Below the pieces are notes generated by a model. That model had not been told where the DNA came from. It worked only from the letters and a program-made list of their open reading frames with translations, and made no database searches. 64,000 nucleotides of DNA from an archaeon (GTDB lineage: Archaea; B1Sed10-29; JAVZDC01), in assembly GCA_038874115.1 (NCBI GenBank), contig JAVZDC010000001.1, forward strand, positions 266,871 through 330,870. The letters run 5' to 3'. Positions within the stretch are counted from its first letter, which is position 1. Every line of letters starts with the position of its first letter. Below, piece after piece: positions 42,752 to 54,710 of this stretch. The translations under genes and the position numbers were made by a program.

Positions 42752-43492
42752 TTAGACTTTTAATAAAGAGAATAAAGAAAAGAAAGGTTGGAGAATTGGA
42801 ATTATGGAAAAACCTTCTGCGCAAGATTTGAACTTTGAAACAAGACTTGGGTAAATGCGAATTCCTGTTTGCTGTTTGTATTCTACATTGCCTCTAAAAA
42901 TAACTTTGACGTTATAAAAATTTTCTTCTGTCGGTGTCATGCACACACTAAAATTACCTTTAGATTTAGGAGGTACTTTCAAAATAGAGAATTCTTGCCA
43001 TCTGGAAGGAACTCCATCAAAATAAACTTCGAAATTCTCTTCTGCGATAGATTTACTTTCTACCCCCATTTGAAAGCAAGATCTTTCTCCGGCTTGTGCC
43101 GTGTATTGTTTGGAAACTGTAAACTTGAAAACATCATAATTACCTGAAAATATTATCCTTGAAGATTTCTGAATCTGGAGGTTTAAACTATTTGAAACTT
43201 TCAAATCTATGTAATGATTTCCAGGTCCGATCCCTTTAGCTAAAATAGTGAAGTGGGTTGCATTAGTTTGAATGCTTGTGTTTACGTCCGAGTGAACATC
43301 AAAAGTATCCCATAAATATGCTCCAGAAGATCTTTCAAAAATAAGTTTTAATTCTTGCCCTGGAGCCACCTCTCCCAAATTAACTTGGTCCGGAAGAATC
43401 ATTTTTTCAGGATAGATGAGCCTCAAATCAACTTCGGAACATAATCCTAGACAAGAAATTAAAGCGAAAATTAAAGCAAACTTGTACTTCAT
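42752..43492 (-). CDS. Secreted beta-rich hypothetical protein.
   Basis: 246 aa with an N-terminal signal peptide (MKYKFALIFALISCLGLCS). Confidence 0.5.
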   Translation of the reverse strand: MKYKFALIFALISCLGLCSEVDLRLIYPEKMILPDQVNLGEVAPGQELKLIFERSSGAYLWDTFDVHSDVNTSIQTNATHFTILAKGIGPGNHYIDLKVSNSLNLQIQKSSRIIFSGNYDVFKFTVSKQYTAQAGERSCFQMGVESKSIAEENFEVYFDGVPSRWQEFSILKVPPKSKGNFSVCMTPTEENFYNVKVIFRGNVEYKQQTGIRIYPSLVSKFKSCAEGFSIIPILQPFFSLFSLLKV

Positions 43493-48418: not shown

Positions 48419-48808
48419 ATGCGATTCATTTGCGATGCAATGCTTGCCAAACTTGGTAGATGGCTTAGAATGGCTGGTTATGATACCAAAATAGCGTCAA
48501 ACAAAGAAAAGGATGAAGAAATTTTGGATAAAGCAATAAGGGAAGATAGGATAATTCTTACTCGAGATAAAAACCTTTCAAGGTATAAAAGAGCGATTTA
48601 TATAACTTCAGATAACCTTCAAGAACAATTAGAACAAACAAAAAAACTTGGGATAGAGTTTAAATTCCCTGAAGAATCGTTTTGTCCTGTTTGCGGTGGA
48701 GAACTAGTGAAAGAAAGAGAAATATGGGTATGTAAAGAATGTAAGAAGAGATATTGGAAAGGAAGTCATTGGAAAGGGATTTTAAAAAGATTTAACTTAT
48801 CAGACTAA
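48419..48808 (+). CDS. Mut7-C/DUF82 PIN-like nuclease-fold protein with a C-terminal zinc ribbon.
   Basis: MRFICDAMLAKLGRWLRMAGYDT... and CPVCGG...CKEC. Confidence 0.75.
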   Translation: MRFICDAMLAKLGRWLRMAGYDTKIASNKEKDEEILDKAIREDRIILTRDKNLSRYKRAIYITSDNLQEQLEQTKKLGIEFKFPEESFCPVCGGELVKEREIWVCKECKKRYWKGSHWKGILKRFNLSD

Positions 48809-49348: not shown

Positions 49349-50494
49349 TTATTTTCGGAAAACTATAACTTTTTTTAATTTTTTATAATGGCTTGGCTTA
49401 GGCACAAATTTCCATATATCTTTTACATTGCAAAACTTTCTTTTTGTAAAAGAGTATAATCTTTGTCCCTCAATCCAACAATTTTTATGCTTTTCTATAA
49501 ACCTGCTAGAATTTTCGTAATCGAAATAGGGTGGGCCCATGCTTTTTTTATATTTTGAAAGGACTGGAGAAGAAACATACAAGGCAATATTTGCGTCTTT
49601 ATCTATCCAATAGTCACTTCTTTCGACCGTAAACCCTTCTTCCTCTAAGACTCTTCTGATGTTGTTACGTAAAGCCGCTAACTGAGACCAAGCTGTTTCT
49701 TCTATGACTTTTGGAACAGGAAATTTAAACAAAACATTGTACCATTTTCTTTTCTCTTTTTTTATTGTAAAGAAGTTAATGCTTGGGTTTCTCAAAAATT
49801 CTCTTGCACGAATTATTGCAAGACCAAGTTTTTCTTGGGAAAGGGCTGCAGCAACATTTCTTTTTGGATCTACGGGGTCTTGAATTTTCAAATGAGTTTT
49901 TAAATTGGCTAGTTCTTCCAAAACCTGCATAAAACTTCCATAAGTTACCACTAAAAGCTCACACAGATATCCGGAAAACCCTTTAACTTTTTCTTCCGCT
50001 CCATATGATCCACATGAAATCAAAAACTGTTTTAATAAAAGAACATCATCTTCTTTTCCCTTTATCTTCTCGAGTAAAAATTGATGGTGAAGCGGGCTCC
50101 TATCTACGGCTGTTTGAATTTCTTGTCCAAACATTATTTTTCTCGCAGGAACTATTTCAACATCAAATCCTTTATATTTCATTCTCACGTATGGGTGCTC
50201 AGCATAATGTATTTTAACTTTTTTCTTTCCAAACAATCTCTGAGAAACTTCCAAAATAACTTCTAAATCTTCTTTTTCAGGTACAAAAACAAATACGTCT
50301 AGATCTATAGAACCCTTTAAGCAAGTTCTTCTTGGAAAAGACCCAACTAAGACCGCCTCGTACCCTAAATCTTTAATTTTACCAATGATCTCTTCAGCTA
50401 TTTTTTCTCCTTTGGCAAAATCTTGTTTTGAAGGCTTTATCTTTGAAAGAACTTTTTCAAAAATCTCATTTAACTTTTCTGACATAACCTTCAT
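49349..50494 (-). CDS. cca: CCA-adding tRNA nucleotidyltransferase (archaeal class I).
   Basis: VGSFPRRTCLKGSIDLDVFVF (nucleotidyltransferase GS...D.D motif). Confidence 0.78.
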   Translation of the reverse strand: MKVMSEKLNEIFEKVLSKIKPSKQDFAKGEKIAEEIIGKIKDLGYEAVLVGSFPRRTCLKGSIDLDVFVFVPEKEDLEVILEVSQRLFGKKKVKIHYAEHPYVRMKYKGFDVEIVPARKIMFGQEIQTAVDRSPLHHQFLLEKIKGKEDDVLLLKQFLISCGSYGAEEKVKGFSGYLCELLVVTYGSFMQVLEELANLKTHLKIQDPVDPKRNVAAALSQEKLGLAIIRAREFLRNPSINFFTIKKEKRKWYNVLFKFPVPKVIEETAWSQLAALRNNIRRVLEEEGFTVERSDYWIDKDANIALYVSSPVLSKYKKSMGPPYFDYENSSRFIEKHKNCWIEGQRLYSFTKRKFCNVKDIWKFVPKPSHYKKLKKVIVFRK

Positions 50495-51842
50495 CCATCA
50501 AAGTTTTAAGCGCGCAACATACGAATTCTTTAGAGTACCTAAGGTTTAAGCATAAGTCTTTAACTTTTATCTCTGGATGCTGTTTTATAAACAAATATAT
50601 TTCTTTTAAAATAACATCTTCGGGCTCCCTTAAGCATTCATAAGTTCCATCGAATTCTTCTTTCAAAAGAATTGCTGGTCTTTTCAAAAATTCTAAAAGA
50701 GTTTTGGATTTTAAAATTAATACTAGAAAACCAAAGCTTATAAACAAAAGAGAGAGGGCTAGGAAGATAAGATATAAGGGGGAAGGGGCTCCATAATTTT
50801 CTAAAAAACTCGTTTTAAGGTATAGGTCCAAAGCTGAACCATTGTAAACCATTGGGCTTAAAAATGGCTCTTCAAAAGATTTCGAATATTTTGGAGGTAA
50901 AACTTTACCTTCGTATGGATCTAACCCAATCCATCTATCTTCTTTATAATATTCCACCCAAGCATACATCTTTTCCGCTTTATTAAAAACTAATCTGCAA
51001 GAAAGACCAGACAAATAGCAAAGTTTTTTGAAATATACTGATGCGCTCAGACTATCAAGAGGGCTTGATGCATCGTGAAATGACGTAAACTCCCCTTGGC
51101 TTCTTGGATATGCTTGTAAAAATTCCATCATATTGACGAGCAAAGCTTGGTTGGAATAGTTTGGAGAGAAAGATAATTTTGGTGGTTTGAAAAAAGTATT
51201 TGTAGAGTACCAGGAAAATTGGGCAGTCTCGTTTGATTTTATATACAAAGGAACGAAAAAAATAGAAATACTAAATTTTTCTCCCTCGGAAAGATTGCTT
51301 GAAATAAACAAATCATAAGTTGAATATTTCGTTTCAAAACCAGTTTTAATTTTTATCGGAGTAGAAAAAACAATACCCAACGCCTCCCCATTTTCTTTAA
51401 AGAGAATTACATATTTAGAAGTTTTATTAATTATCTCTGGAGTAAATATTTGAAAACTTTCCGTTGATGAAAAAGTCCATTTAAGGCCAACTTTGCCTGT
51501 TTTTTTAGCAGTTAAATCAAAATCTAGACGAACATCGCGGTCATTAAAAGTTATTTTTTCGCTTAAAGAATAATCCAGCCTTTCTATATACCCTTCATAA
51601 ACAGATGCTCCCGAGGATAAACCAGTATGGCTTGGTGCTATTATTCGTGTTTCATTTTCAAAAGAGACAGCTGGGAGAATTTGAAAAGAAAAACCATTTA
51701 CTGCCACTGGCAAATAAAAGTTATCTATTTTTGCGAAATAAGTTTCTCCTTTTACAAGATGCCCGGCATCGTAAGGTCCGAGATATTGAATGGCATTTGA
51801 GAAATTCAAGATGAACATTAGAAATAAAAGTTTTTTGATCAT
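50466..51842 (-). CDS. Membrane-anchored protein with an extracytoplasmic transglutaminase-like core and a cytoplasmic C-terminal winged-helix domain.
   Basis: Signal/TM at the N-terminus. Cys...AW...D arrangement (LCYLSGLSCRLVF...MYAWVEYYKEDRWIGLDPYEG). A TM helix near residue 360 and C-terminal KEIYLFIKQHPEIKVKDLCLNLRYSKEFVCCALKTLMDEGYV. Confidence 0.5.
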   Translation of the reverse strand: MIKKLLFLMFILNFSNAIQYLGPYDAGHLVKGETYFAKIDNFYLPVAVNGFSFQILPAVSFENETRIIAPSHTGLSSGASVYEGYIERLDYSLSEKITFNDRDVRLDFDLTAKKTGKVGLKWTFSSTESFQIFTPEIINKTSKYVILFKENGEALGIVFSTPIKIKTGFETKYSTYDLFISSNLSEGEKFSISIFFVPLYIKSNETAQFSWYSTNTFFKPPKLSFSPNYSNQALLVNMMEFLQAYPRSQGEFTSFHDASSPLDSLSASVYFKKLCYLSGLSCRLVFNKAEKMYAWVEYYKEDRWIGLDPYEGKVLPPKYSKSFEEPFLSPMVYNGSALDLYLKTSFLENYGAPSPLYLIFLALSLLFISFGFLVLILKSKTLLEFLKRPAILLKEEFDGTYECLREPEDVILKEIYLFIKQHPEIKVKDLCLNLRYSKEFVCCALKTLMDEGYVRKVK

Positions 51843-51879
51843 ACGTTTTTATATAAATAATTTGTTTATAATTTTTTCA

Positions 51880-52392
51880 TTAAATCAAAGAAAAACGCTT
51901 CAGCTCTGTGTATTGTGGGCCTTTCGGAGAAAGTTTGCTTTCAAAAACAGAAAAATATTGAAAATCTAGTTCTCTTTTGTACTGTTTTGAAAAGAACGCT
52001 GAAAGATCTATTTTTCTTTTTATCCTGGCCAAAGTCAAATGTGGAACATAACTTTCTTTTGAAAAACCCAGTCGATGAAGTTCTTCTGATAAAAGTTTTT
52101 CTAAAGCGATCAAAGAAGGACTTTTAACAGAAATATAAAGCACTCTTATGAAATTTTTATTCGGGAAAGCATCAAATCCGTCTAAACTAACATGTACGGT
52201 CCCAAATCCTTTCAAAGTTTCCAAAACCGTAAAAACTTCTTGAAGTTTTTTTTCATCAATCTCTCCTAAAAATTTAAGACAAATATGCAAATTTTGAGGT
52301 TCGACTGGTTTAATTCCAGCAATATTTAAATCTTTTAAAAAACTTAAAATCTCAGAATCCGGTTCTATTTTAAACCCGATAAAAACTCGCAT
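51880..52392 (-). CDS. 2H phosphoesterase (LigT/ThpR RNA 2',3'-cyclic phosphodiesterase family).
   Basis: Two H-x-T/S-x motifs (LHICL, PHLTLARI) at a spacing typical of LigT. Confidence 0.72.
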   Translation of the reverse strand: MRVFIGFKIEPDSEILSFLKDLNIAGIKPVEPQNLHICLKFLGEIDEKKLQEVFTVLETLKGFGTVHVSLDGFDAFPNKNFIRVLYISVKSPSLIALEKLLSEELHRLGFSKESYVPHLTLARIKRKIDLSAFFSKQYKRELDFQYFSVFESKLSPKGPQYTELKRFSLI

Positions 52393-52452: not shown

Positions 52453-52983
52453 ATGCGCGAGATCAGAGTTAAAGACATTATGAAAAAGGTTGTTTTAAGC
52501 GTTTCTGAAGACAACACGATTGAAGATTTGGCTAAAGTTATGAAGAAAACCGGCATTGGTGGAGTGCTCGTTTTGGACCATGGAAAAATAAAAGGAATAA
52601 TTACAAAAGGAGACGTTATGAGAAAAGTTTTGGCTGTTGGAAAAGATTACAAAAAAACAAAAGTAAAAGAAGCTATGAGTTCTCCAGTGCATACTATAGA
52701 TATTAATGAGAGTGCGGAAAACGCGATGAAAATGATGCGCAGTTTGAATATAGAAAGATTGCCCGTCTTAAAAGACGATAAATTAGTCGGGATAATAACT
52801 GAAAGGGACATAATTGCTATTGCTCCTTCCTTAATCGAATTAGCTGAAGAAAAAAACATTTTGGAAATAATTCCCGCTGGGGAAAAAGAAATTACTTTGG
52901 CTGGAGAATGTGAAGAATGTGGAAACTATTCTGAATCCTTGAGATATATACGAGGTTTATGGTTATGCGAAAATTGCAGATAA
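52453..52983 (+). CDS. CBS-pair protein with a C-terminal zinc ribbon.
   Basis: Two CBS domains, then CEECGN...CENC. Confidence 0.78.
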   Translation: MREIRVKDIMKKVVLSVSEDNTIEDLAKVMKKTGIGGVLVLDHGKIKGIITKGDVMRKVLAVGKDYKKTKVKEAMSSPVHTIDINESAENAMKMMRSLNIERLPVLKDDKLVGIITERDIIAIAPSLIELAEEKNILEIIPAGEKEITLAGECEECGNYSESLRYIRGLWLCENCR

Positions 52984-53888
52984 AAGTACAACAGGGAAAA
53001 GATTGGAAAAAATTTTTTGATCGAGGGCCGAGAAATAGAAAACAAAAAAGATCTGAAAAGAAAGGAGGCACGATAAAAGATCTTTGCGAATATTCAGCAT
53101 ACGTTTTTCCAAACACTCCTATAAAAGAATTGCTTGGAATAATTGTTGAAAATGAGCTTAGGAGGGTGCCTGTTCTATCTCCTGGAACTAAAAAAATTGT
53201 TGGAGAAGTTAAAGGAAGCGATCTGTTGGAACTTTTCTTTTTTGGACCAAAGCACGAGATTTTTGAAAAAAATGGATTTGCTAAAACTTTAAACTTGCCA
53301 GTGAGAGTTATTTATTCTAAAAACCCGGAAAGCGTAGACGTAAAAGAATCGATAATTGAGCTATTGAAAAAGATGAGCGGCGGCAAAGGGATAATTTTTG
53401 TCACGGATAATGGAAAATTTATTGGCAGCATAAGTGAAAAAACTGTAATCGATTGGTTGAAAGAAAGCATCGTAGATGAAACGGTAGAAAATGTTATGAA
53501 TCCAAAAGTTATAACGATTCATCCCGGGTTTAAAGTTTCGGATGCTGCAAGAATGATGATCATTAACAAAATCAGAAGAATACCAGTTATAACTTATGAT
53601 ATTCCGAAATACTGGTGTATGCTTGCCGGAATAATAACTTACGCTGATATTTTGAAGGCTTTAATGCTATGTAAAAATGAAGGAGAATATTATGAATTAT
53701 GCAATAAAACCGTTGAAGAGATTATGACTAAAAATCCAGTAACTATAGAACCTAAAGAAAAAATTTCAAAAGCTATAAAAATTTTTGCAGAATCTGGTCA
53801 TGGTGCCTTACCGGTTTTCACTCATGATGTTTTACATGGAATATTAACTAGAAGGGATATATTAAAAAATATAAAGTTTGAGAAGTGA
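52959..53888 (+). CDS. CBS-domain protein (multiple CBS repeats).
   Basis: 309 aa with repeated CBS-like blocks. Confidence 0.7.
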   Translation: MVMRKLQIKVQQGKDWKKFFDRGPRNRKQKRSEKKGGTIKDLCEYSAYVFPNTPIKELLGIIVENELRRVPVLSPGTKKIVGEVKGSDLLELFFFGPKHEIFEKNGFAKTLNLPVRVIYSKNPESVDVKESIIELLKKMSGGKGIIFVTDNGKFIGSISEKTVIDWLKESIVDETVENVMNPKVITIHPGFKVSDAARMMIINKIRRIPVITYDIPKYWCMLAGIITYADILKALMLCKNEGEYYELCNKTVEEIMTKNPVTIEPKEKISKAIKIFAESGHGALPVFTHDVLHGILTRRDILKNIKFEK

Positions 53889-53894
53889 GGAAAT

Positions 53895-54710
53895 ATGAAA
53901 CTAGATAAATACATATCAAAAGAAGTTTGTGTTGTTCTTCCACAGGATACAGTAGCTCACGTTAGAAATCTTTTTTTGAAAAAAAAGATCTCTTGCGTAT
54001 TAGTATACGATAAAAAACCTATTGGAATAATAACTGAAAAAGAGCTTGCTGATGCTTTTGTTAAAGAAAGGAGAAGCATCGACCAAATACTTGCGAAAGA
54101 GATTACAAATAAAGATTTTTTAAAAATACATCCTGAAGCAAGCGTAGGGGAAATCGCGAAATTAATGATATCTAAAAAAGGCTCTCATGTTGTTTTGGTG
54201 AGGAATGACGATATTTACGGCATCATTACAAAAACCGATTTAGTTAGATATTTCGCTGAAAACTTAAAAGATAAAGTTTTTGTTGAAAATTTAATGACTG
54301 AAAAAGTTGAGACGATTACTGAAATGCACTCATTATTCCAAGCTGCTAAGAGAATGAGAGAAAAAGGAATAGAGAAGCTAGTTGTAGTGGATGGCAAAAA
54401 ACCAGTAGGAATAGTAAGCCAAAGAGATATTTCTTTAGCATCATTAGGTTTATATCCTTCAAAAGTTATACTGATAAGAAAAGCTGGAGATAAAATACAT
54501 CATCATGAAAAGATTATGCCTGCGATAGTTGCAGACATAATGAAAACAAATGTTGAAACAATAACTAAAGATGAAGATTGCGCCGAAGCTGCTAAAAAAA
54601 TGTTGGATAAACGAATTGGATCTTTAATAGTCGCCGATTCAAATGGATATTTACAAGGAATTATAACAAAAACAGACCTTGTTCGATGGATGGCTGAAAA
54701 TTGTAAATAG
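53895..54710 (+). CDS. CBS-domain protein (four CBS repeats).
   Basis: 271 aa with four CBS-like repeats (GIITEKEL, GIITKTDLV x2, GIVSQRDI). Confidence 0.78.
   Translation: MKLDKYISKEVCVVLPQDTVAHVRNLFLKKKISCVLVYDKKPIGIITEKELADAFVKERRSIDQILAKEITNKDFLKIHPEASVGEIAKLMISKKGSHVVLVRNDDIYGIITKTDLVRYFAENLKDKVFVENLMTEKVETITEMHSLFQAAKRMREKGIEKLVVVDGKKPVGIVSQRDISLASLGLYPSKVILIRKAGDKIHHHEKIMPAIVADIMKTNVETITKDEDCAEAAKKMLDKRIGSLIVADSNGYLQGIITKTDLVRWMAENCK

Follow-up and report, generated by a model that had tools for sequence, protein, structure and literature searches.

An unnamed family of Micrarchaeota-affiliated surface proteins with a predicted inactive transglutaminase-like ectodomain and a cytoplasmic winged helix

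What would a protein do that appears to carry a degenerate transglutaminase (TGase)-like domain outside the cell and a winged helix inside it? The question is raised by a gene for 458 amino acids (aa) located on the minus strand of a 64,000-nucleotide (nt) stretch of the archaeal contig JAVZDC010000001.1 (assembly GCA_038874115.1), which will be referred to as the window and has a GC content of ∼33%. A first-pass annotation, made from the sequence alone, had described the product as an inactive TGase-like ectodomain joined through one transmembrane helix to a cytoplasmic winged helix-turn-helix (wHTH) domain, and this architecture proved to be correct. According to our analysis, the product is a type I (bitopic) membrane protein made up of a signal peptide, a beta-supersandwich, a linker, a dead TGase-like domain, a transmembrane helix and a DUF7343-like winged helix. 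It is probably a surface receptor or a membrane-tethered regulator rather than an enzyme.

Domain plan of the family

The open reading frame (ORF) was present exactly as first annotated, and its product was divided into the following parts, in which pLDDT stands for the predicted local distance difference test score of AlphaFold2.

50466..51842, minus strand: whole gene, 458 aa plus a TGA stop (ORF list; start M1 at 51842)
51792..51842, minus strand: signal peptide or signal anchor, aa 1 to 17, MIKKLLFLMFILNFSNA (sequence; AlphaFold2 helix at aa 2 to 13)
51225..51791, minus strand: extracellular beta-supersandwich, aa 18 to 206, of galactose-mutarotase, GH-N-domain or YidC-P1-like fold (AlphaFold2 and Foldseek)
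51159..51224, minus strand: flexible linker, aa 207 to 228 (AlphaFold2 pLDDT <50)
50787..51158, minus strand: TGase-like (papain-fold) domain, predicted to be catalytically inactive, aa 229 to 352 (hhalign, weak Pfam matches, AlphaFold2)
50709..50780, minus strand: transmembrane helix, aa 355 to 378 (Kyte-Doolittle, AlphaFold2 helix 355 to 386, positive-inside rule)
50652..50708, minus strand: juxtamembrane linker, basic and poorly conserved, aa 379 to 397 (14% mean pairwise identity)
50469..50651, minus strand: cytoplasmic winged-helix module, DUF7343-like, aa 398 to 458 (AlphaFold2 pLDDT 92 to 95; profiles)

Neither the core nor the wHTH of the window protein rose above threshold in Pfam or NCBIfam. 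A word-indexed homology search with the whole protein returned only the protein itself, and the same search with the core alignment (A2) gave no match, family members included, so that it was uninformative. When 1.84 billion cluster representatives were scanned exhaustively with HMMER, 30 relatives with 23 to 34% identity emerged, 29 of them at an expect value (E) of ≤1e-10 and most of them aligned end to end. The family amounts to 31 clusters at 50% identity, and these 31 sequences constituted family alignment A1; A2 is the core profile and A3 the C-terminal profile. The existence of 30 distant full-length relatives argues that the gene is real and under selection.

The GTDB species representatives were scanned with a profile of the CCA-adding enzyme, which is encoded next to the gene in the window, and the ORFs of the resulting 80 loci were searched with hidden Markov models (HMMs) of the family. 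Only four further genomes proved to encode the protein: L008, from Micrarchaeota; L012, labeled "archaeon"; L018, labeled "Nanobdellati"; and the single-cell genome L028. The members from the last three, which are more divergent, were used as an outer branch in the comparison of residues. The best non-self match of the window GatE (48%) lies on the same contig as family member P0005, and the nearest named relatives of this GatE (∼45%) belong to Candidatus Micrarchaeota. The family is restricted to Micrarchaeota-affiliated DPANN archaea. Between the genomes of the relatives, where the GC content of the locus ranges from 32 to 56%, identity was 37 to 50% for the CCA-adding enzyme, 30 to 57% for LigT and 23 to 34% for the membrane protein; the clade is a deep one, with the membrane protein evolving fastest of the three. 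Taken as a whole, this is a conserved, single-copy surface protein family, unnamed and new.

The single-sequence AlphaFold2 model was poor (pLDDT of 46) except for aa 410 to 458, whereas the model built with the 31-sequence family alignment reached a pLDDT of 84.9 and a predicted template modeling score (pTM) of 0.73. The family-based model comprises an all-beta domain (aa 19 to 203) and a disordered linker (aa 207 to 228), followed by a core region with helices at aa 231 to 243 and 264 to 277, strands at aa 282 to 286, 294 to 300, 303 to 308 and 331 to 333, and a helix at aa 337 to 349. Its C-terminal region consists of a long helix (aa 355 to 386), a strand (aa 399 to 403), three helices (aa 410 to 421, 427 to 434 and 438 to 450) and a last strand (aa 454 to 456).

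In alignment A1, the signal peptide is followed by ∼190 weakly conserved residues and then by a core block (HDVD..DSLxASxYFKxxCIxxxxPCxLVIG..YAWxxAY..WxDxD..P..Y..YEEP), the transmembrane helix and a variable linker; the C-terminal part contains an invariant GxY strand and the conserved module YSxELIxxxxxYLxDxGxIxK. The mean pairwise identity was highest in the winged helix (36%), ahead of the core (31%), the N-terminal domain (24%) and the juxtamembrane linker (14%). This ranking makes the winged helix more likely to be a functional output than a spacer. The juxtamembrane linker also varies in length, with Pro/Ala/Gln-rich inserts in some members.

The signal-like N terminus that had been annotated was borne out by the sequence, by the predicted helix at its start and by conservation, the n-region and h-region of the signal peptide being conserved in all full-length relatives; we infer that the signal peptide is cleaved. 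The NCBI gene model encodes 450 aa, starting at M9, i.e., eight codons downstream of M1. Because every full-length family member opens with M-K/R followed by a hydrophobic stretch, M1 (51842) is the better start. The M9 start of the NCBI model (51818-51842, minus strand) would strip the KK n-region from the signal peptide.

Only one strongly hydrophobic helix follows, that at aa 355 to 378 (Kyte-Doolittle 19-aa mean of up to 2.91), and it leads into a K/R-rich stretch, in agreement with the single transmembrane helix of the first-pass annotation. Across the family, the mean number of K plus R residues was 1.16 in the 15 aa preceding the helix and 4.13 in the 15 aa following it, with a higher value after the helix in 27 of the 31 members. 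Given this enrichment, the positive-inside rule places the winged helix in the cytoplasm, where the C-terminal part had been predicted to lie.

The distribution of NxS/T sequons was also considered as evidence of topology and was dropped, since the family has 63 sequons outside for 81 expected from amino-acid composition and 14 inside for 11 expected, and hence no enrichment outside. The window protein itself contains seven sequons, all of them before the transmembrane helix and none inside.

A second, very hydrophobic transmembrane helix, together with a K/E-rich linker, follows the winged helix in 11 of the 30 relatives (A1 columns ∼690 to 715), namely P0002, P0003, P0009, P0012, P0017, P0018, P0020, P0022, P0025, P0026 and P0028; the window protein lacks this extension. 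Their winged helix is a loop on the cytoplasmic side, clamped by a transmembrane helix at either end.

The ∼340 aa outside the membrane had been assigned to a single domain with a TGase core. The core was confirmed, but the domain plan had overlooked aa 18 to 206, a separate beta-supersandwich of some 190 aa. This region is all-beta in the family-based model, with a pLDDT mostly between 80 and 97. Foldseek searches of the PDB with the whole model gave, among the matches listed, E values from 1e-5 to 7e-4 at a probability of 1.0 over ∼220 to 270 aligned columns. These matches were YgjK of GH63, the GH65 kojibiose phosphorylase, MdoD, GH92, GH38, cellobiose phosphorylase, heparinase III, YidC P1 and aldose 1-epimerase. 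Their full-query TM-scores were low (∼0.25) because the beta-supersandwich makes up only 40% of the model. The same fold class was also returned with the poor single-sequence model, and the domain had no match in Pfam.

The transglutaminase-like core

The core itself consists of helix 264 to 277 and strands 282 to 286, 294 to 300 and 303 to 308 of the AlphaFold2 model. Searching PDB sequences with the core profile produced no match at an E of ≤10, and the full-length protein had no Transglut_core match in Pfam at an E of ≤1. When the core segments were isolated, 13 of 30 members matched Transglut_core (best E, 1.4e-4); the window core scored 14.9 bits against a cut-off of 23 (E of 0.033), its aa 273 to 309 aligning with positions 63 to 108 of the 108-position HMM. 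Among the isolated segments, three members matched the EDR1/CTR1/ARMC3 peptidase-like family and two the TGD of Rad4 (E of ∼0.1).

The register was set by hhalign against TGase-core segments with intact triads taken from the PDB (3isr and TgpA, 6g49). The core profile A2 matched them at 95.9%, with an E of 5.9e-9, a match that may be somewhat inflated by the template alignment (A4), which has three rows, one of them the consensus-like probe used for retrieval. The TGase-like similarity first read from the sequence thus found support in a profile comparison. Mouse and yeast PNGase aligned with the core in the same register, but at only 7.7%. In view of these two values, the family resembles the generic TGase core more closely than it does the PNGase/Rad4 branch, and a specific PNGase/Rad4 relationship was rejected.

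The residues at the catalytic positions, and a pair of cysteines within the core, are as follows.

51051..51053, minus strand: Ser264, nucleophile position, opening the core helix (hhalign register extended ungapped; AlphaFold2 helix start)
50964..50966, minus strand: Tyr293, position of the catalytic His (hhalign)
50919..50921, minus strand: Asp308, position of the catalytic Asp (hhalign)
50997..51020, minus strand: Cys275 and Cys282, near-invariant extracellular Cys pair (family alignment)

Across the family, C is absent from the nucleophile position (27 S, 2 F and 1 Y in 30 sequences) and H from the His position (27 Y, 3 F and 1 V in 31). The outer-branch members L012, L018 and L028 likewise have S and Y, respectively, at these positions. 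The Asp position is kept as D in 21 of 30 sequences and is N, P or S in the other 9. Since none of the 30 relatives or of the three genome finds has Cys or His at the corresponding position, the whole family, and hence the TGase-fold ectodomain, is predicted to be catalytically dead as a thiol enzyme.

The first-pass annotation had read a papain-like arrangement of Cys, aromatic-W and D from the motifs SCRLVF, YAWVEYY and WIGLDPY, which were located at aa 281, 293 and 304, respectively. The core fold and the aspartate (Asp308) stand, and the replacement of the catalytic His, given as Y or M, was verified, with Tyr at this position here and Y, F or V in the family. The cysteine does not stand: Cys282 of SCRLVF aligns with the Ala of the GIPAR strand, and the nucleophile position is that of Ser264, so that two of the three triad positions have been lost and not one. 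The divergent member L012 has a canonical GIPARLV motif in this strand.

Of 30 sequences, 28 contain both Cys275 and Cys282, whereas P0004 and P0020 have neither. Within the outer branch, L028 lacks both, and L012 and L018 have one each. The pair suggests a disulfide that would link the core helix to the first strand and that the outer branch does not keep.

A serine in 27 of 30 sequences at the N terminus of the core helix, exactly where the nucleophile is expected, together with an aspartate kept in most members, could also be taken as the signature of an active extracellular Ser264 hydrolase or transferase, a serine variant of the TGase/PNGase-type enzymes acting on envelope glycoproteins. 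Krishnan et al. 2018 (PMC6222260) do describe PNGase homologues on the surface of archaeal cells, Micrarchaeota included, that have a signal peptide and a transmembrane helix at the C terminus; however, all of them are stated to keep an intact Cys-His-Asp triad. In the present family, by contrast, the general-base His is replaced in every member, the Asp position has changed in nine, and the core is not specifically PNGase-like in hhalign. Serine is, moreover, a common N-cap residue of helices, and the conservation of Ser264 may reflect helix N-capping alone, a purely structural cause. We therefore regard an active serine enzyme as hardly credible.

Winged helix, gene neighborhood and function

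The C-terminal module follows the order beta-alpha-beta-alpha-alpha-beta, with a pLDDT above 90. The best PDB match of profile A3 was the Lrs14-like protein 6cmv (E of 8.4e-4), and weaker matches were obtained with NiaR, the Lrp-type PH1519, a BirA-family regulator, AF2008 and the ESCRT-II protein SNF8 (E of ∼0.45). In Pfam, the full-length protein gave subthreshold winged-helix matches at aa 411 to 458 (FeoC, E of 0.036; MarR_2, E of 0.059; Lrs14, E of 0.13), and the isolated wHTH segment of the window came closer to the thresholds without reaching them (FeoC, E of 9e-4 and 19.7 versus 21 bits; MarR_2, E of 1.9e-3 and 18.8 versus 27 bits). Isolated segments from the family matched, below threshold, DUF7343 in 8 of 31 members and MarR_2, RPA_C and HTH_Cmi2_C in 6 each, with further matches to FeoC, HTH_11, Fe_dep_repress, EAP30, HTH_24, RuvB_C and Rrf2, nearly all of them winged-helix families. 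The DUF7343 matches had E values of at least 0.0018 and all fell below the 27.6-bit threshold, the window segment giving none at an E of ≤0.1. When the family wHTH profile was compared by hhalign with a genuine DUF7343 domain (65 bits), that of the L031 protein described below, the match was 88.5%. The winged-helix fold expected from the first-pass annotation is therefore well supported, by the model, by 6cmv and by DUF7343. In the literature search, DUF7343 was mentioned in no paper found, and it is without a published function.

Tentatively, and as a reading that we place somewhat short of probable, we propose that the protein is a membrane-tethered one-component regulator resembling the transmembrane transcription regulators (TTRs), with putative DNA binding. 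The ectodomain would be a nonenzymatic binding module, in which the beta-supersandwich and the cleft of the dead papain fold would recognize a glycan or a peptide, be it of the cell envelope or of a host cell. A winged helix that does not leave the membrane would pass this recognition on to the cytoplasm. The regulator would work from there, with its own ligT-containing operon as the simplest of the possible targets. Consistent with this proposal, the winged helix found its best PDB and profile matches among DNA-binding regulators (Lrs14-like, NiaR, Lrp and MarR), and a conserved K/R cluster (I-K/R-K/R) closes the wing.

Several observations weigh against it. No ligand, target site or conserved palindrome was identified, and DNA binding is predicted only, so that of the DNA-binding output originally annotated it is the wHTH fold that holds. 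All the Pfam matches of the wHTH lie below threshold, and they include the protein-binding winged helices RPA_C, EAP30, MCM5_C and RuvB_C; protein-binding families score about as high as DNA-binding ones. The wHTH tends to be acidic, with a net charge averaging -2.8 (range, -13 to +4), and in 11 of the 30 relatives it is tethered at both ends, which is unusual for a DNA-binding head. The gene is translationally coupled to a housekeeping enzyme, which is atypical for a regulator. Finally, the Foldseek searches covered whole models, and the N-terminal domain dominates the matches listed, so that they lend no support to the TGase-core and wHTH folds. Net charge was set aside as a test of DNA binding, being weak evidence only: the matched DNA-binding Lrs14 segment is also acid rich by eye.

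Some of these same features would be accommodated by a surface adhesin or envelope organizer, without transcriptional output, whose ectodomain binds glycans or proteins of the host or of its own envelope and whose winged helix acts as a protein-protein adaptor, tying a cytoplasmic partner such as a pilus-type ATPase or other machinery to the membrane. An acidic winged helix would suit an adaptor, as would the weak matches to protein-binding winged helices (RPA32-C, ESCRT-II EAP30, MCM5-C and RuvB-C, plus SNF8 in the PDB) and the clamping between two membrane helices. The ectodomain, with 24 to 31% identity compared to 37 to 50% for the CCA enzyme, evolves fast, as expected for surface proteins of episymbiotic DPANN archaea, and of the 10 loci, 4 have a convergent T2SSE/PilB-type ATPase gene directly next to the family gene and a fifth has one close by. 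However, no T2SSE neighbor is found in the window, L002, L004, L018 or L028, where the CCA gene follows directly, and no partner has been identified. The regulator-type matches and the basic cluster of the wing also speak against a mere adaptor, and we consider this alternative, the strongest competitor of the regulator, doubtful.

The location of the gene raises a third possibility. Its immediate surroundings are as follows.

51880..52392, minus strand: upstream gene ligT, LigT/ThpR RNA 2',3'-cyclic phosphodiesterase (TIGR02258, E of 5e-33)
51850..51871, minus strand: two TATA-like elements in the 37-nt spacer between ligT and the gene (read from the sequence)
49349..50494, minus strand: downstream gene, archaeal CCA-adding enzyme (TIGR03671, E of 2e-100)

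The start of the CCA-adding enzyme overlaps the 3' end of the 458-aa gene by 29 nt. The elements in the spacer are TTATAAA at 51865 to 51871 and TTTATATA at 51850 to 51857; the former, ∼27 nt upstream of the M1 ATG, is consistent with a leaderless transcript and a putative promoter role. Each of the 10 distinct loci has ligT immediately before the gene, and in five of these loci the two genes overlap by 4 nt (ATGA type). Downstream, the neighbor is the CCA gene, a convergent T2SSE ATPase gene and then the CCA gene, or RtcA (L006).

At L006 (3687-8399, plus strand), NrdD, LigT, the family protein and RtcA, the RNA 3'-phosphate cyclase, form a chain with stop/start overlaps in which RtcA replaces CCA. 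The T2SSE/PilB-type ATPase gene, convergent with the family gene, overlapping its 3' end and preceding CCA, lies at 7424-8950 in L005, 7451-8983 in L007, 8443-10098 in L008 and 8514-9992 in L012, always on the minus strand. In L055 (8450-9880, plus strand), a high-GC Micrarchaeota locus, the slot between LigT and CCA holds an unrelated 477-aa ORF without a transmembrane helix, Pfam match or family-HMM match.

Such a position would fit a membrane-tethered component or autoregulator of RNA-end repair, in which the winged helix binds RNA, DNA or the ligT, cca or rtcA enzymes and so links an envelope signal to the healing of tRNA or RNA 3' ends. The gene directly follows ligT in every locus, with the overlap in half of them, a CCA enzyme lies downstream in 5 loci, and RtcA takes part in the overlapping chain of L006. 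In addition, rearrangements have occurred downstream of the gene and never between it and ligT, in genomes of 32 to 56% GC. The same ligT-cca pair is, however, found without the gene. In ∼40 loci devoid of it, the ligT stop is the cca start or lies near it (∼10001), in groups such as the Archaeoglobi, Methanocellales, Methanobacteria, Methanomicrobia, Bathyarchaeia and Desulfurococcales, among others. The loci with abutting genes include L011, L015, L019, L021, L022, L025, L029 to L033, L036, L038, L040, L042, L044, L048, L051, L053 and others.

The ligT-cca pair is thus widespread among archaea and probably old, and it looks like a possibly functional gene pair for tRNA 3'-end healing. Because the pair is widespread and the gene lies between its members in a single DPANN subclade, the synteny calls for no involvement in RNA repair and is most simply accounted for by one insertion into an ancient operon; a start/stop overlap, once formed, is also hard to break. 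The glycan-type ectodomain, for its part, gives no hint of RNA repair. The functional link drawn from synteny was downgraded in view of the gene-less loci, and a role in RNA-end repair appears improbable. We read the location, co-orientation and coupling as the result of history and co-expression and not as evidence of RNA repair, which is a caution for inferences from gene neighborhoods: here, strict synteny with RNA-repair genes is probably history, not function.

DPANN archaea are thought to depend on host contact, and the molecular details of host recognition are little known according to published abstracts. A bolder combination of the above elements would be a DPANN-specific receptor in which the dead TGase domain and the glycan-type beta-supersandwich sense contact with the host or the envelope and signal, without kinase or protease, to a membrane-clamped winged helix controlling the ligT/cca/rtcA operon. 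We think this very improbable; if true, it would link cell-surface recognition directly to tRNA and RNA healing in an episymbiotic archaeon. More broadly, the family, with a binding ectodomain, one transmembrane helix and a cytoplasmic winged helix, lends itself to study as a candidate receptor or attachment factor in a Micrarchaeota-affiliated clade.

Other genes of the window are worth recording. Divergently from ligT, three consecutive CBS-domain proteins of 176, 309 and 271 aa are encoded at 52453-54710 (plus strand), a trio annotated in the source contig, and the tail of the first is zinc-ribbon-like (CxxC...CxxC). A Mut7-C/PIN-like RNase carrying a zinc ribbon at its C terminus is encoded at 48419-48808 (plus strand), overlapping on the opposite strand the 3' end of the EF-1-beta gene; it is also found beside EF-1-beta in L002, L004 and L007. 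At 42752-43492 (minus strand), beside ELP3, lies an ORF of 246 aa with a signal peptide, a hydrophobic C-terminal tail and no Pfam match. Its homologues, with 22 to 30% identity, are beside ELP3 in L004 and L007 and one gene off in L002, and another is present in L005, where Pfam data do not cover its neighbors and ELP3 was not identified. To judge from its sequence, this ORF would be a second uncharacterized surface protein of the clade.

Comparison with known systems

With the TGase-like superfamily (PF01841; 3isr and Pseudomonas aeruginosa TgpA, 6g49), the family shares the helix and three-strand core in the same order and register, and the alignment takes in three strands, the GIPAR-like one (SCRLV here, GIPARLV in L012), that with xAW and that with W..D. 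It differs in that the nucleophile is never Cys (Ser here) and the His is never kept (Tyr here), in a Pfam score of 14.9 against 23 bits, and in its surroundings, since the core is preceded here by a beta-supersandwich and followed by a transmembrane helix and a wHTH. TgpA, unlike the family protein, is polytopic and catalytically active.

Inactive members of this fold are known elsewhere, band 4.2 being one of them. The TGD of Rad4/XPC is likewise an inactive TGase-fold domain (PMC6222260). The ectodomain core resembles it as a papain/TGase fold that has lost its catalytic residues and would serve as a binding module; unlike it, these known domains are eukaryotic and cytoplasmic or nuclear, and there is no specific sequence relationship, the inactivation being independent. 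The family would thus add a prokaryotic TGase-fold pseudoenzyme to that of Rad4/XPC.

The archaeal PNGase homologues (PMC6222260), which are linked to N-glycoprotein and restriction-type genes, resemble the family in that their TGase-fold ectodomain lies between a signal peptide at the N terminus and a C-terminal transmembrane helix. They differ in their triad, absent here, and in the linkage of the present gene to ligT and cca and its 7.7% match to PNGase cores; the section of the paper on these homologues makes no mention of a cytoplasmic wHTH such as that of the family.

The N-terminal domain has the same fold as the beta-supersandwich domains of GH63, GH65, GH92 and GH38 enzymes (N-domains), cellobiose phosphorylase, MdoD/OpgD, YidC (P1) and heparinase III (C-domain). 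It shows no sequence similarity to these solved domains (7 to 12% identity), and no catalytic domain is attached to it here.

In regulators of the ToxR/CadC type, an N-terminal cytoplasmic OmpR-type wHTH is followed by a transmembrane helix and a C-terminal periplasmic sensor. The order is reversed in the present family, in which the signal peptide, the ectodomain and the transmembrane helix precede a C-terminal MarR/DUF7343-like wHTH. TTRs, defined by a transmembrane region and a DNA-binding domain, number ∼4 per archaeal genome (Demey et al. 2023, PMC10269533), so that the statement that such an architecture is uncommon in archaea was exaggerated. Like ToxR, CadC and TcpP (PMC10269533), the family protein crosses the membrane once, between an extracytoplasmic domain and a winged helix in the cytoplasm, and by analogy it could act on DNA from the membrane. 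Unlike these TTRs, a third of the family has a second transmembrane helix after the wHTH.

The closest parallel in domain plan is found among archaeal proteins consisting of an ectodomain, a transmembrane helix and DUF7343 (PF24034). One of them, encoded at L031 (3683-4360, plus strand) in an uncultured archaeon, has 226 aa with a signal peptide, a CarboxypepD_reg-like ectodomain, a transmembrane helix and a C-terminal DUF7343 (E of 5.6e-18). It shares with the family the signal peptide, a beta-rich ectodomain, the single transmembrane helix and the C-terminal winged helix, but the ectodomains are unrelated, and the family wHTH falls below the DUF7343 threshold. The same plan with another ectodomain suggests that the ectodomain-transmembrane-wHTH arrangement is modular in archaea. 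Since its wHTH lies below the Pfam thresholds, the family would escape a Pfam-based census of TTRs, and archaeal DUF7343-like proteins of this plan therefore reach below the detection limit of such censuses. In the literature search, no paper was found in which a TGase-like domain, a transmembrane helix and a wHTH are combined in archaea. Thus, while the archaeal ectodomain-transmembrane-winged helix plan was known, although uncharacterized, the combination of domains in the ectodomain and the unnamed family that carries it are new.

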